From the sequence record OP688485: a DNA stretch of 64,000 nucleotides, one strand, 5' to 3'. Origin of the DNA: Escherichia phage EP_H11. The number at the start of each line of letters is the position of its first letter. Positions within the stretch are counted from its first letter, which is position 1. This document shows positions 9,609 through 13,002 of the stretch, piece after piece. Below the pieces are notes generated by a model. That model searched no databases. It had not been told where the DNA came from and saw nothing but the letters and a program-made list of their open reading frames with translations. The translations under genes were made by a program, and so were the position numbers.

Positions 9609-10316
9609 ATGGTTGATAAGAATAAAGTATTCCAGATTCTACAAGCTGGTCGTGGTACTGTTAACCCACTCAGCGATGTAGGTGCTGTGGCTGGAGAGAA
9701 AACCCAGTCTGTAGTTAGCGGATTAAGCCAGCTACAGAATCCTTCGGCACTTAAGGCAGAAGCTCTTAATAAGGCTGGTATAGATCCGGCCTACATCAAC
9801 GCAGCCCAGCTAGCTATGGAGGGTAACTTATCCAGCATCTCTACGCTAGTTGCCTACGGCGATGAATCTGTACAGAACATGTACTCCAGAATTAACATAG
9901 CCAAGAACTATGCAGCAGCCATGGATAAATTCGGAGTGGCTACTGCATGTACCCCATTTAACTCTGTGATGGGCATCGTCGGTGGTATTGGGCAACGAGC
10001 ACTGAATACAGTCACGGAGGCCGTTGGGGGAGCAGCTGACAGTATTGAGGAGTTCCTGGGTCTGGACGATACCGAAGATCTTCTGGCTAAGGCTCAGGAA
10101 CTTAAGGATACTCTGGATGGTGCTTTTGAATCAGTAGCTACTTTCGTTAAGGACGTAACCGACTACATTAACGAAGAGGCATTACTCCTTAAAGAGTACA
10201 TGACTACCGCAATTAACTCAGCACTAACTGAAATACTTGGTGACTGGGTTGATGGGGAATGTACTTCAGCTATTATGGATACGGTCCTTAGTCCAGAGGT
10301 TAGACAGTACTTATGA
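9609..10316 (+). CDS. hypothetical protein, first gene of glycosyltransferase operon
   Basis: 235 aa; GGAG RBS; ATGA-coupled to next gene. Confidence 0.5.
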   Translation: MVDKNKVFQILQAGRGTVNPLSDVGAVAGEKTQSVVSGLSQLQNPSALKAEALNKAGIDPAYINAAQLAMEGNLSSISTLVAYGDESVQNMYSRINIAKNYAAAMDKFGVATACTPFNSVMGIVGGIGQRALNTVTEAVGGAADSIEEFLGLDDTEDLLAKAQELKDTLDGAFESVATFVKDVTDYINEEALLLKEYMTTAINSALTEILGDWVDGECTSAIMDTVLSPEVRQYL

Positions 10317-10849
10317 TAAAGAGAATAATGTGTGTAGCTAGCGGTCCTTCTCTAACCGAGGAGGATTATTTACTACTTGCTAGTAAGTCCGACTTGGTTA
10401 TTAGCGCTAACAACGCCATGTTCTCATCCAGACCTCCCAACATAGTTTATGGATTTGATCCTATCTGGTGGGAGCATAACTATAATAATGTTCCGAGCAC
10501 CTGCTCTAAGTATAGCCATCTTCCGGTAGAGAATCATCCAGATGTGAAACAGTTCTTCTACTTGAATAGTTGCTATAACTCAGGTGCTCAAGCTATCTTC
10601 TTAGCCAGCGTATTCGCTCCTAAAGAGATAGTACTTCTTGGCTATGACTGCGATATCTCTGAGGGCAGCCATTTCCACGGGGATCATATTGGTAAATTAA
10701 CTAATCCCGATCTGGAAACAGTTGCTAAATGGATGGAGGACTATTACTTGGTCAAGAAATACCTTCCAGATAGTATTGATGTAATCAATTGTACCAGAAG
10801 GACTAAAATAACATGCTTCGAGAGGCTAAGTATAGAAGACCTGCTGTAA
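10313..10849 (+). CDS. putative glycosyltransferase, CstII/sialyltransferase-like (DUF115/MAF-type fold), paralog 1
   Basis: CVASGPSLTEEDY... and NSGAQAIFLASVFAPKEIVLLGYDCD resemble GNGPSLKEIDY and ITSGVYMCAVAIALGYKEIYLSGIDFY of Campylobacter CstII as recalled. Confidence 0.5.
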   Translation: MIKRIMCVASGPSLTEEDYLLLASKSDLVISANNAMFSSRPPNIVYGFDPIWWEHNYNNVPSTCSKYSHLPVENHPDVKQFFYLNSCYNSGAQAIFLASVFAPKEIVLLGYDCDISEGSHFHGDHIGKLTNPDLETVAKWMEDYYLVKKYLPDSIDVINCTRRTKITCFERLSIEDLL

Positions 10850-11448
10850 TTGTAGCAGATGGACCATCGGCAAGAGGATTTACTCCTCCGCATGAGATAC
10901 CGATATTTGCGGTTAATGGTGCCATAGAGTGGCTACCCAGAGCTAATTACTTCTTTACTCTGGACCCCAGCCAAGCTAATCTATGTCGTATCCAAAACCC
11001 TAGGATGGGTACTCGTTATTATCTAGCTGTTGACGAAGCAGATATGCATCTGTATTCGGATTATGGAGCACACTTACTTAAGCGGGACGAACATCGTGGG
11101 GAGGAGCCTATCTACGGCACTCCCCTATGGTGGTTGTGGAGATGGAGAGCAGTTCCTGGGTTATCTGAGGATCCTGATGTAATCAGTTCCGGGAATAGCG
11201 CTTATGGGGCGATCGGATTAGCTTATCATATGGGCTACACTGATCTCTTGTTGGTTGGGGTAGATGGTAGTCCTGAACCAAGAATATCTGGTGGGGTACC
11301 AAATAATCTTAGCCATCTTCCTATTTTAATTAAGTCGGCTACAGAGAAGATAAATATTCAGTCCTTATCAGGGATTGGTGGGACTCGTAAAACTACTGTT
11401 GAGGAATGGCTGAATGAAGTTACTGTATATAGCGAATTGCCCGAGTAG
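10813..11448 (+). CDS. putative glycosyltransferase, CstII/sialyltransferase-like, paralog 2
   Basis: AVIVADGPSARGF... and NSAYGAIGLAYHMGYTDLLLVGVDGS, same two motifs as upstream paralog. Confidence 0.5.
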   Translation: MLREAKYRRPAVIVADGPSARGFTPPHEIPIFAVNGAIEWLPRANYFFTLDPSQANLCRIQNPRMGTRYYLAVDEADMHLYSDYGAHLLKRDEHRGEEPIYGTPLWWLWRWRAVPGLSEDPDVISSGNSAYGAIGLAYHMGYTDLLLVGVDGSPEPRISGGVPNNLSHLPILIKSATEKINIQSLSGIGGTRKTTVEEWLNEVTVYSELPE

Positions 11449-12382
11449 TTCACATCAGGTAACCAGCTTCAGTACCATGTGGAAATATCATCTCCGAACG
11501 GCTCTGGAGAATAACGGAGTAGAGCTGGTAGTATATCCAGAGTATAATAAGATAACGAATCCATTCTCCTATGCAGAGCAAGTATTGGAGATAGCTAAGG
11601 AAACTAAGTGCGATCATATCTTATATGTGGGAGTACGTCCGTTTACCCAGATTCCTCTAGAGATAGGAGAATACCTTAAGAAGCACTTTAAGGGATTAGT
11701 TACTCATATCTATGATGGGTCGATGCTGGACTGTAATCAGGTAGACGTAACTTTCACTCTTCGGGATGATACCTATAAATACTTAGATAATCCCAGTCGT
11801 CTTAAGCGACATATTGAGAATAACTGGCAGGTAGGATGGGCGGCAGACGATAAGCTATTCTACCCAGAGAAGATGTCGGATGGGGTGCTTAGGGTATTTG
11901 TGGACCATCCTCTATTTGATCTGTCGGACTTCGATTACTCCCTAACCATGATGATGAACCTTAAGCATATTCCGGTTCCTCACGTATCTTACACTCTTAC
12001 CGATAATGGATTATGCGTTATTGACGAGGAGAATATAAGTGTTGAGGAGTATCGTCGGGGAGGAGTAAGCAGTCAGGAGTTCGCTGCATTAATCAGATGC
12101 TGCGATATCTTCATAGTTACTCATAAAGAATCGTTAGGTCTTACTGTCCTGGAAGCGGCTCGGTGCGGAGCTCTGATAGTAACTAAGGAGGGACTTATTC
12201 CTAAAGATCGTCTGGAATCTGTAGAGCATCACATAGTTGGTTCTAAGATAAACTGGGACGAAATACTCCCTAAACTTAACAGAACCAAGATTGCTGATAA
12301 GGTTAAAGATTGTACCTGGGATAACGTAGCTAAGAGCATGATCCAGGGATTTAAACATATGGAGAAGATTAAATGTCGTTAG
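11414..12382 (+). CDS. putative GT-B fold glycosyltransferase (GT1/GT4-like)
   Basis: 322 aa; C-terminal ESLGLTVLEAARCGALIVT resembles the E-x7-E / LEA..G.P motif of GT4 enzymes. Confidence 0.55.
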   Translation: MKLLYIANCPSSSHQVTSFSTMWKYHLRTALENNGVELVVYPEYNKITNPFSYAEQVLEIAKETKCDHILYVGVRPFTQIPLEIGEYLKKHFKGLVTHIYDGSMLDCNQVDVTFTLRDDTYKYLDNPSRLKRHIENNWQVGWAADDKLFYPEKMSDGVLRVFVDHPLFDLSDFDYSLTMMMNLKHIPVPHVSYTLTDNGLCVIDEENISVEEYRRGGVSSQEFAALIRCCDIFIVTHKESLGLTVLEAARCGALIVTKEGLIPKDRLESVEHHIVGSKINWDEILPKLNRTKIADKVKDCTWDNVAKSMIQGFKHMEKIKCR

Positions 12383-13002
12383 TAGTTACGGTGTTCCGTA
12401 AGGGTAAGGACTTCACAGAAGATCACGTTAAATGGGTAGGTAGGCAACTACCAGAGGGCACGAGATATGCATGTATCTCTAAAGAGCCTATCGAAGGAGT
12501 TGAGTGGATACCTATGAAGCATGATTATCCTGGCTGGTGGAGTAAGATGGAGCTATTCACTATCCAGGAGCCATTCGTGTTCTTCGATTTAGATACAGCA
12601 ATTATCGACGATATAACATTCCTGCTGAACTGTGACGAATCAACTATTCTCCGAGACTGGTACCATACTGGGATGGTTAATAGTAGCGTGATGCGTGTTG
12701 AGCCTATCTTATCTGAGCGCATCTGGAATGCTTGGATAGTCAACCCAGATAAATTCATGGCTGATCACTCGATAGGAGGTGATCAGGAGTTTATCTGCCC
12801 ATTCTTTAATGGGGTACCTCGCATACAGGATCTCTATCCAGGTAAATTCTGTTCCTACAAGGTATCAGTAGTAGGTCCTGACCAAGAGCATTACTGTCAT
12901 AGGTCTACCGGAAACGGGTCGGTGCCTAATGGAGTTGCGGTAGTGTGCTTCCATGGCACTCCGAGACCATGGGATTTGAAGTATTCATGGATACCTAAAT
13001 AA
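12373..13002 (+). CDS. putative nucleotide-diphospho-sugar transferase (DxD motif)
   Basis: 209 aa; FFDLDTAIIDD segment; operon position after three glycosyltransferase-like genes. Confidence 0.4.
   Translation: MSLVVTVFRKGKDFTEDHVKWVGRQLPEGTRYACISKEPIEGVEWIPMKHDYPGWWSKMELFTIQEPFVFFDLDTAIIDDITFLLNCDESTILRDWYHTGMVNSSVMRVEPILSERIWNAWIVNPDKFMADHSIGGDQEFICPFFNGVPRIQDLYPGKFCSYKVSVVGPDQEHYCHRSTGNGSVPNGVAVVCFHGTPRPWDLKYSWIPK

Follow-up and report, generated by a model that had tools for sequence, protein, structure and literature searches.

A compact P1-type cassette of predicted glycosyltransferases in Escherichia phage EP_H11

Introduction

The temperate plasmid prophage P1 and phage P7 carry four genes (pmgO, pmgP, dbn and pmgQ in P1; hdmB, hdmC, glt and hdmD in P7) whose families are already annotated in P1 and in PHROGs, and carry the labels glycosyltransferase or sialyltransferase-like in public databases. 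In P1, dbn follows the ban helicase gene, and pmgN-pmgO-pmgP-ppp-pmgQ form a separate operon under a C1 operator, approximately 6 kb away. A CRISPR interference screen found dbn, pmgO, pmgP, ppp and pmgQ to be non-essential (PMC10695390), and 24 of the 29 single-gene pmg/upf knockouts had no effect on plating or antirestriction, only pmgA, -B, -C, -G and -R being essential in that study (PMC9024508). Our literature search found no functional study of pmgO, pmgP, dbn, DUF7217 or MptE-like phage proteins. Here we analyse a 64,000-nucleotide (nt) stretch of Escherichia phage EP_H11 (sequence record OP688485; hereafter the window), in which homologs of the four P1 genes stand together in one five-gene operon.

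Phage glycosylation has been described for other targets. According to PMC12363180, mycobacteriophages use glycosyltransferases of their own to modify capsid and tail-tube proteins with sugars, and the enzymes of Che8, Corndog and Myrna are presented there (citing Freeman et al. 2023) as soluble, phage-encoded and non-essential, using host donors. Sugar-bearing (oligosaccharide) hypermodified thymidines have been measured in YerA41, Carin-5 and SP-15, with which Escherichia phage vB_EcoM_IME392 is grouped, together with RP13, by its UDG-domain PolA; a dCTP deaminase and a thymidylate synthase were also noted in IME392 (PMC12686479). IME392 is the closest public genome to the window (93.8% nucleotide identity over 96% of the query) and has all five operon genes, each annotated as 'hypothetical'.

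Results

The operon shares four enzymes with phage P1

The operon is composed of five open reading frames (ORFs) on the + strand, spanning 9609-13002, each located where a first-pass annotation of the window had placed it (Table 1). Neighbouring ORFs overlap by 4, 37, 35 and 10 nt in 5' to 3' order, an arrangement that fits the translational coupling proposed in that annotation. All five have many homologs, so that none is a chance ORF.

Genes 2-5 match P1 and P7 proteins over 95-99% of their length (tblastn, E 1e-21 to 6e-91). Identity to the P1 counterpart is 31% for gene 2 (PmgO; HdmB in P7), 47% for gene 3 (PmgP; HdmC), 48%, over 97% of its length, for gene 4 (Dbn; Glt) and 33% for gene 5 (PmgQ; HdmD). 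In addition, hidden Markov models of the operon families retrieve the P1 proteins at E 1e-43 to 1e-97, and each gene belongs to the corresponding P1 family. A comparison of every window ORF with about 55 kb of P1-type DNA gave strong matches for genes 2-5 only; the set has therefore been transferred as one functional unit between E. coli phages that are otherwise unrelated.

The order PmgO-PmgP-PmgQ is the same in both phages, whereas the P1 genes are split over two C1-controlled operons and those of EP_H11 form a single overlapping one. Moreover, P1 has the Ppp phosphatase where the EP_H11 operon carries the Dbn homolog, and the operon lacks PmgN and has a DUF7217 gene in front. The phages themselves also differ, P1 being a temperate plasmid prophage and the phage of the operon being lytic-type, of a 116-kb class, with a kinase cluster for 5-hydroxymethyl-2'-deoxyuridine (5-hmdU). 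Judged from sequence and predicted structure, genes 2-5 very probably encode P1-type enzymes with glycosyltransferase folds. The operon thus appears to be a compact version of a known, functionally uncharacterised mobile phage glycosylation cassette.

Strongly hydrophobic segments are absent from all five proteins (maximum 19-residue hydropathy <=1.5), and the four enzymes, which the operon arrangement implies are co-transcribed, are all predicted to be soluble. In agreement with the first-pass annotation, no gene for sugar-nucleotide synthesis was found among the window ORFs scanned. No tRNA genes were found within the 64-kb window.

Genes 2 and 3 are paralogs with a predicted Maf/CstII-like fold

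Gene 2 is placed in a PHROGs family named 'alpha-2,3-sialyltransferase', and gene 3 matches its own PHROGs family at E 2e-62. Against MptE-like (PF01973), the one Pfam family that they match and one which takes in the central domain of Maf, the two proteins score 20.3 and 17.8 bits, below the gathering cut-off of 34.6; 51 of the 55 PmgO-family members have an MptE-like match at E<=1, the best at 5e-7. The AlphaFold2 (AF2) model of gene 2 (mean predicted local distance difference test score, pLDDT, 92.5; predicted template modelling score 0.89) resembles the solved structures of Maf and of the family 42 glycosyltransferases (GT42) CstI and CstII, so that the likeness to CstII/Maf-type transferases suggested from motifs extends to the predicted fold. 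Direct comparison of gene 2 with gene 3 gives only E 0.002 by BLASTP, whereas alignment of a 55-sequence PmgO profile with a 45-sequence PmgP profile by hhalign reaches 99.2% probability (E 1.7e-19, 174 columns); the two genes are true paralogs, as had been proposed.

The motifs named in the first-pass annotation (GPS..N and NSG..LLG(Y/V)D in the paralogs, DxD in gene 5) are all present and are invariant or nearly so across the families. In the gene 2 family, G11, P12, S13, L14, D49, G91, G110, H120 and N159 are invariant and N89, S90 and H125 nearly so, giving the conserved motifs GPSL, N, NSG..A and G.D together with H120. The PmgP family has invariant GPS, N, NSA and G.D motifs and H168, which are kept in gene 3. 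With these residues retained, both paralogs look catalytically competent. The motifs of both families are in register with the cytidine monophosphate (CMP)-binding motifs of CstII, although the match to a CstII profile is weak (E 0.2); the conserved histidines (H120/H125 and H168) are candidate counterparts of CstII His188. The phage paralogs differ from their characterised relatives in size and in similarity. The flagellin nonulosonic-acid glycosyltransferase Maf (PDB 5MU5) has 632 residues with flanking domains, whereas the phage proteins, of 178-211 amino acids (aa), correspond to the central domain alone, and their sequence similarity to Maf and CstI/CstII lies below every curated threshold.

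A further, remote resemblance may exist to WaaZ, an enzyme of the lipopolysaccharide (LPS) core. Using single-sequence templates, hhalign aligned the PmgO profile over its full length with a Klebsiella-type WaaZ-like protein (85% probability, E 6e-6), the motifs GPS, N, [ST]G..A and G.D falling at matching positions, and more weakly with WaaZ of E. coli K-12 (52%, E 1.4e-4). The corresponding probabilities for the PmgP profile were 60% and 20%. HMMER gave no link between PmgO or PmgP and the WaaZ family (Pfam PF27901, KdoIII transferase). Maf, CstII and WaaZ all use CMP-activated 2-keto-3-deoxy acids, and E. coli K-12 produces no CMP-ulosonic acid other than CMP-3-deoxy-D-manno-oct-2-ulosonic acid (CMP-Kdo); CMP-Kdo is therefore the donor that we propose for genes 2 and 3.

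Genes 4 and 5 resemble GT4 and GT8 enzymes

Gene 4 scores 24.5 bits (E 2.2e-5) against Pfam Glycos_transf_1, below the gathering cut-off of 26.4, and P1 Dbn (25.0 bits) also falls below it. Nevertheless, the EX7E motif (E239..E247) typical of GT4 enzymes is invariant in 61 relatives drawn from a representative library, together with H237, G242 and G252. A profile of these 61 sequences matches the glycosyltransferase 8xsg in the PDB at E 1.5e-4, across EX7E. Just 6 of the 61 relatives reach Pfam GT1 at E<=1e-3, so the family, assigned in the first-pass annotation to the GT-B (GT4-like) enzymes, is best described as a divergent GT-B branch. Searching the PDB with genes 2, 3 and 4 as single sequences yielded no useful match, and family profiles were needed.

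Gene 5 matches its PHROGs family at E 2e-55. It has no Pfam family at E<=1, and Glyco_transf_8 was found in none of 58 family members. The profile of these 58 sequences matches the GT8-type structures GlaT1 (E 7.8e-8) and glycogenin (approximately 3e-6). In addition, the AF2 model of gene 5 (pLDDT 97.1) retrieves glycogenin, GlyE, LgtC and GlaT1 by Foldseek (best E 5.5e-7, template modelling score about 0.63), with GT8 enzymes leading the 105 matches at E<=1e-3. D72, D74 and H194 are invariant in the family, and D72-x-D74 with H194 would form the predicted Mn2+/uridine diphosphate (UDP)-sugar site of GT8 type. Gene 5 therefore shares the GT-A fold, the DxD motif and the distal histidine with glycogenin, GlaT1, GlyE and LgtC, in line with its earlier description as a DxD-motif transferase, and it is much shorter (209 aa versus 260-400 aa). 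A WaaJ-like identity was considered and rejected, hhalign against E. coli WaaJ giving 15% probability.

Gene 1 belongs to the DUF7217 family

Residues 4-235 of gene 1 cover positions 2-237 of the 238 in the Pfam model PF23854 (DUF7217) with E 1e-78 and 264.8 bits, against a cut-off of 29. The protein is alanine-rich (12.8% Ala). Its homologs occur in 580 phage records, mainly of Felixounavirus and Ackermannviridae. In Ackermannviridae the gene is located among head and tail genes, where the label 'structural protein' is a database annotation. No glycosyltransferase stands next to the DUF7217 gene in the two contexts examined (Felixounavirus and Ackermannviridae), which leaves a fixed functional link, with DUF7217 as dedicated partner or acceptor of the enzymes, unsupported.

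Related genes recur in phage head modules

Homologs of the cassette genes were found in several other phages (Table 1). Five separate HK97-type modules carry PmgO, PmgP or PmgQ genes after the major capsid gene or among head-completion genes, frequently with overlapping frames, and two lambdoid-type contexts carry them between lysis and terminase genes. The slot between PmgP and PmgQ is variable, being occupied by Ppp in P1, by a GT-A-like protein and a methyltransferase in the lambdoid-type locus L008, and by the Dbn-type enzyme in the EP_H11 operon. A longer gene run (L023) includes a methyltransferase and a GT9-like protein. Across the contexts the partners thus include Methyltransf_23 enzymes, a GT-A-like protein, a sulfotransferase and a phosphatase. 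This gene arrangement suggests the anatomy of a glycan-assembly cassette with tailoring enzymes, whose usual home appears to be a late or head region of the genome.

In phage D3 and jumbo phage Eowyn, the partners of PmgO are a Methyltransf_23 enzyme and an unknown protein about 280 aa long; these partners (D3 orf12/orf13 and Eowyn genes 4/3) had been considered as hidden PmgP/PmgQ homologs, and this was rejected. In one HK97-type metagenomic phage (L022, 6001-7193), the PmgP-type gene right after the capsid region overlaps a Sulfotransfer_2 gene, which suggests sulfated glycans in some phage head modules.

The operon lacks its own recognisable promoter

An intrinsic-terminator-like hairpin precedes gene 1, at the left boundary given in the first-pass annotation. 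It has the sequence AGGGAGAC-TTCG-GTCTCCCT, with a stem of 8 bp including five G-C pairs and a TTCG loop, and is followed by the T-run TATTTTT. The element ends 18 nt before the start codon of gene 1, a distance of 24 nt when counted from the hairpin end at 9584, and may act as left boundary or attenuator. The hairpin is conserved in IME392, whereas to its left the two phages have unrelated sequences, so that the hairpin marks a mosaic junction. IME392 also has about 230 extra nt between the hairpin and gene 1 (L001 12003-12277 versus window 9565-9609), and this insert opens with the same ATG GTT GA(C/T) AAG (MVDK) codons as gene 1. Either a junction left by recombination or a short inserted or duplicated segment accounts for the difference.

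A 39-nt intergenic motif, CCGCTCTTT..AAAGGCTGTTAAAnTGT, occurs in seven + strand copies that are confined to the early/middle + strand block of the window. Its core AAGGCTGTTAA has seven exact + strand copies; with up to one mismatch on both strands there are nine matches versus 0.96 expected, a number that none of 100 shuffles reached. Every copy of the motif stands 30-60 nt upstream of a start codon, which makes a phage-specific promoter a reasonable inference, and the motif probably serves as promoter for a transcription class specific to the phage. IME392 has annotated homologs of the beta and beta' subunits of RNA polymerase. The copy called B in the first-pass annotation lies directly after the last stop codon of the operon; it would start the next transcription unit and so form the right boundary, as stated there.

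The description of the operon as insulated needs one correction. Neither the 39-nt motif nor a sigma-70-like site was found on the + strand between the hairpin and the start of gene 1, and no convincing terminator follows gene 5, so that the upstream promoter and downstream terminator of a self-contained unit were not recognised. Expression is thus probably achieved by read-through of the hairpin or from an unrecognised promoter. The nearest upstream copy of the motif, at 6047-6085, stands before the NAD-dependent ligase gene and is the probable start of a transcription unit running into the operon. Most simply, the operon would be the distal part of this ligase unit, reached by read-through at the hairpin.

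Two other repeats were noted. The exact 10-mer CTTTATAGGG brackets the operon (9559 and 13010) and is not significant, since 39 of 100 shuffles gave at least six one-mismatch matches; only its right-hand copy belongs to the 39-nt promoter-like family, and the left-hand copy, which overlaps the terminator stem, is probably a coincidence. A 59-nt direct repeat, 86% identical (1020-1078 and 4518-4576, + strand), ends in the G+C-rich hairpin-like sequence AAAGCCCGTTCTT.TGGG.GGGGCG and may represent another class of element, with a regulatory or terminator function.

The surrounding block and the IME392 hypermodification-type cluster

The block that harbors the operon contains further DNA-metabolism genes and anti-defence candidates (Table 1). 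The dUTPase and the dCTP-deaminase-family gene mentioned in the first-pass annotation were both identified, and the pair fits a supply of dUMP for a hydroxymethylase encoded outside the window. NADAR proteins reverse ADP-ribosylation of DNA, and that of the window is a possible counter-defence gene against DarT-type toxins. The Acb1-like, PinA-like and NADAR families are linked to anti-defence or host takeover, so an anti-defence role of the operon would fit the block.

Outside the window, a cluster of thymidine-hypermodification type adjoins PolA in IME392. Its genes encode a thymidylate-synthase homolog (PF00303, E 5e-12), a P-loop kinase, a 5-hmdU DNA kinase helical domain (PF18723, E 3e-35), a PIG-L N-acetylglucosamine (GlcNAc)-deacetylase (E 7e-14), a full-length BCCT betaine/carnitine/choline transporter (E 1e-92), an S-adenosylmethionine (SAM)-dependent methyltransferase and three proteins of 302-359 aa (AXY86080, AXY86081 and AXY86084) with no Pfam or PHROGs match. 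A homolog of dUMP hydroxymethylases and a 5-hmdU DNA kinase are therefore present in one genome. Pfam and PHROGs recognised no glycosyltransferase in the cluster. The transporter and the sugar deacetylase are unusual in such a cluster and hint at an undescribed thymidine modification.

Table 1 Features of the operon, its surroundings and related loci. Positions are those of the window unless a locus is named.
Feature	Position	Strand	Remarks
Gene 1, DUF7217 protein, 235 aa	9609-10316	+	Pfam PF23854, phrog_2114
Gene 2, PmgO/HdmB family, 178 aa	10313-10849	+	phrog_4603, predicted Maf/CstII-like (MptE-like superfamily) transferase fold
Gene 3, PmgP/HdmC family, 211 aa, gene 2 paralog	10813-11448	+	phrog_2111
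Gene 4, Dbn/Glt family, 322 aa, divergent GT-B (GT4-like)	11414-12382	+	EX7E motif
Gene 5, PmgQ/HdmD family, 209 aa, GT8-like GT-A	12373-13002	+	phrog_1962, DxD
Intrinsic-terminator-like hairpin and T-run	9565-9591	+	hairpin itself 9565-9584
Promoter-like motif copies	886-924, 6047-6085, 13004-13042 (copy B), 18199-18237	+	repeat family
Promoter-like motif copies, continued	19598-19635, 22311-22349, 23386-23424	+	repeat family
Acb1 (anti-CBASS)-like protein, 168 aa	54-560	+	Pfam 27.5 bits versus threshold 27; PHROG 'RNA ligase' (2H phosphoesterase-like)
Family X DNA polymerase	5272-6045	+	
PinA-like Lon inhibitor	8582-9001	+	
LysM-domain protein	17389-17955	+	
NADAR-domain protein	21010-21669	+	E 7e-27
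Rv2179c-like 3'-5' exoribonuclease	22374-23087	+	
RyR-domain protein	23663-24043	+	
dUTPase	24040-24510	+	E 2e-35
dCTP-deaminase-like protein	24781-25404	+	E 1e-23; side by side with dUTPase
IME392 thymidine-hypermodification-type cluster beside PolA	L011 (MH719082 17001-67000), locus 14858-23713	minus	
D3: capsid, orf6.5, orf7 (PmgO-type), head-tail adaptor			HK97-type head module
L012: capsid, PmgP-type, PmgQ-type, frames overlapping			HK97-type head module
L014: capsid, 89-aa gene, PmgO-type			HK97-type head module
L015: capsid .. connector, PmgO-type, head-closure gene			HK97-type head module
L022: capsid .. PmgP-type, Sulfotransfer_2			HK97-type head module
L008: PmgO, PmgP, GT-A-like, methyltransferase, PmgQ			between lysis and terminase genes, lambdoid-type
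Citrobacter phage phiNP: PmgO, PmgP, PmgQ			between lysis and terminase genes, lambdoid-type

Discussion

Overall, the interpretation of the operon as a set of glycosyltransferase-like enzymes is supported, and the main question concerns their acceptor. Our leading, though tentative, reading is that the four enzymes glycosylate a virion protein of the phage. The enzymes would draw on host-made sugar donors, the GT4-like and GT8-like enzymes using UDP-hexose or UDP-N-acetylhexosamine and the two Maf-like enzymes a CMP-activated ulosonic acid, and would jointly build a short glycan. The acceptor would be a protein of the head or another part of the particle and would receive its sugars in the cytoplasm, before assembly or while it proceeds, as in the mycobacteriophages, and the DUF7217 protein may be a co-transcribed particle protein or the acceptor itself. 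Read-through at the 9565 hairpin would keep the enzymes at low, catalytic levels. We rank a virion target first on account of the head-module and late-operon contexts, the affinities to Maf and to protein-acting GT8-like enzymes, the tailoring enzymes, the non-essentiality and the actinobacteriophage precedent. The P1 deletions and knock-downs that cause no plating defect are as expected for decoration. With regard to the precedent, the enzyme families and the host phylum of the mycobacteriophages differ from those here, and the glycosylated product of the operon is a predicted one.

Several observations weigh against this assignment. The operon belongs to the early/middle block of the + strand, where its neighbours are genes of DNA metabolism and anti-defence, and it runs opposite to the structural genes. 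The P1 genes are under C1-controlled sigma-70 promoters, with dbn behind the ban helicase gene. We know of no report of a glycosylated virion protein for P1 or any other phage of a Gram-negative host, and the comparison of the window with about 55 kb of P1-type DNA revealed no evident strongly similar structural protein common to both phages that could serve as acceptor. Moreover, a close cellular homolog of gene 5 stands in an LPS-core cluster, pointing to a lipid-linked acceptor. The donors named above are predicted ones, and the 'structural protein' label on DUF7217 in Ackermannviridae is annotation alone.

The cellular homolog just mentioned leads to the reading that ranks second, LPS-core remodelling, which we regard as unlikely. 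Here the substrate of the enzymes would be newly made lipid A-core at the inner membrane, to which they would add Kdo and hexoses or whose assembly they would divert, and the altered or truncated receptor core would lead to superinfection exclusion or would spare progeny from adsorption to debris. P1 adsorbs to the LPS core. The homolog is a 213-aa PmgQ-family protein, 39% identical to gene 5 over its full length (E 6e-48), encoded within the chromosomal waa LPS-core cluster of Klebsiella/Raoultella (L019/L020, 7001-7642). It is flanked by waaL and by a 320-aa gene, a presumed deacetylase that matches no Pfam family, with WaaZ_KDO_III and heptosyltransferase genes nearby, and is a candidate for an unannotated outer-core glycosyltransferase. 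In line with such a role, LPS outer cores are built by GT4 (WaaG) and GT8 (WaaO/WaaJ) enzymes, a combination that the operon shares, although the waa enzymes lie in a polysaccharide locus and the phage genes do not. The gene 5 family is placed in the PHROGs category 'moron, auxiliary metabolic gene and host takeover', and the named hosts of the operon families are all Proteobacteria. The alignment of the PmgO family with WaaZ-like proteins also agrees with an activity on the core, but this similarity is remote and comes from single-sequence templates, and gene 5 reaches only 15% probability against WaaJ. C1 represses the P1 genes in lysogens, so lysogenic conversion is not expected, and surface LPS turnover is slow compared with the lytic cycle. 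In addition, the low hydropathy of all five proteins gives no feature of membrane association, and the recurrent placement in head modules with overlapping frames is unusual for surface-conversion morons.

Decoration of hypermodified thymidine ranks third, and we consider it doubtful; the first-pass annotation had called a DNA-modification role plausible but unproven. The operon would add the sugar part of an SP-15/YerA41/Carin-5-type oligosaccharide-hypermodified thymidine, a 5-hmdU-derived side chain being glycosylated after replication so that the DNA is shielded from host nucleases. This agrees with the lineage of the phage, since the 94%-identical IME392 falls by PolA among phages with sugar-hypermodified thymidines (PMC12686479), and the window ligase is closest to the ligases of RP13, Ab1-TPeters and SP-15. 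A scan of viral contigs with the window ligase, aimed at lineage members that lack the operon, found no relatives. The dUTPase, the dCTP-deaminase-like protein and the location of the operon among DNA-metabolism genes are consistent with such a pathway. GT4 enzymes classically pair with a PIG-L deacetylase that acts after them (PIG-A/PIG-L, MshA/MshB, BshA/BshB), which makes gene 4 a candidate partner of the IME392 PIG-L enzyme, and the weak PDB matches of gene 4 are to BshA. A more specific version, in which the paralogs add an ulosonic acid such as Kdo, gene 4 adds GlcNAc and PIG-L deacetylates it to complete an SP-15/YerA41-like thymidine in an E. coli phage, is improbable; if true, it would be the first ulosonic acid found on DNA. 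Nearly as novel, and likewise speculative, would be glycans resembling the LPS core on the capsids of P1 and many phages of Gram-negative bacteria.

The distribution of the enzymes argues against this reading. P1 has orthologs of all four, and members of the families are common among temperate phages of HK97 and lambdoid type, for which, to our knowledge, no 5-hmdU pathway is known; none was seen in the stretches read of P1-type, HK97-type and lambdoid phages. Conversely, tblastn gave no match of genes 2-5 in RP13, SP-15, LIS04, the Rhizobium phages or Ab1-TPeters. In IME392, about 27 kb separate the operon from the hypermodification cluster, whereas in SP-15, YerA41 and Carin-5, which share the lineage by PolA and ligase, the glycosyltransferase blocks adjoin the DNA polymerase gene and include sugar-nucleotide enzymes. 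The three 302-359-aa proteins of the IME392 cluster could be its own glycosyltransferases. In P1, antirestriction was unchanged in the knockouts of every pmg gene except pmgA, -B, -C, -G and -R (PMC9024508).

The possibility that genes 2 and 3 are MptE/TPK-type pyrophosphokinases, with pyrophosphate from ATP activating a hydroxymethyl or hydroxyethyl group, such as one on 5-hmdU DNA or on some small metabolite, and with only genes 4 and 5 transferring sugars, is very unlikely, because the CMP-activated donors common to Maf, CstII and WaaZ favour a CMP-ulosonic-acid transferase.

The cassette is not a new kind of system, but it reveals that four P1 genes listed as 'putative morphogenetic' or 'unknown' (dbn, pmgO, pmgP and pmgQ) form one conserved enzyme set. 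Virion glycosylation has so far been shown only for actinobacteriophages, where it alters antibody recognition, a point relevant to phage therapy. If the reading that we favour is true, some phages of Gram-negative bacteria, including P1, glycosylate their particles. Should DNA or the LPS core prove to be the target, the operon would represent a new device for anti-restriction or for receptor masking. Whichever target holds, the P1 genes and the EP_H11 operon provide easy genetic handles.

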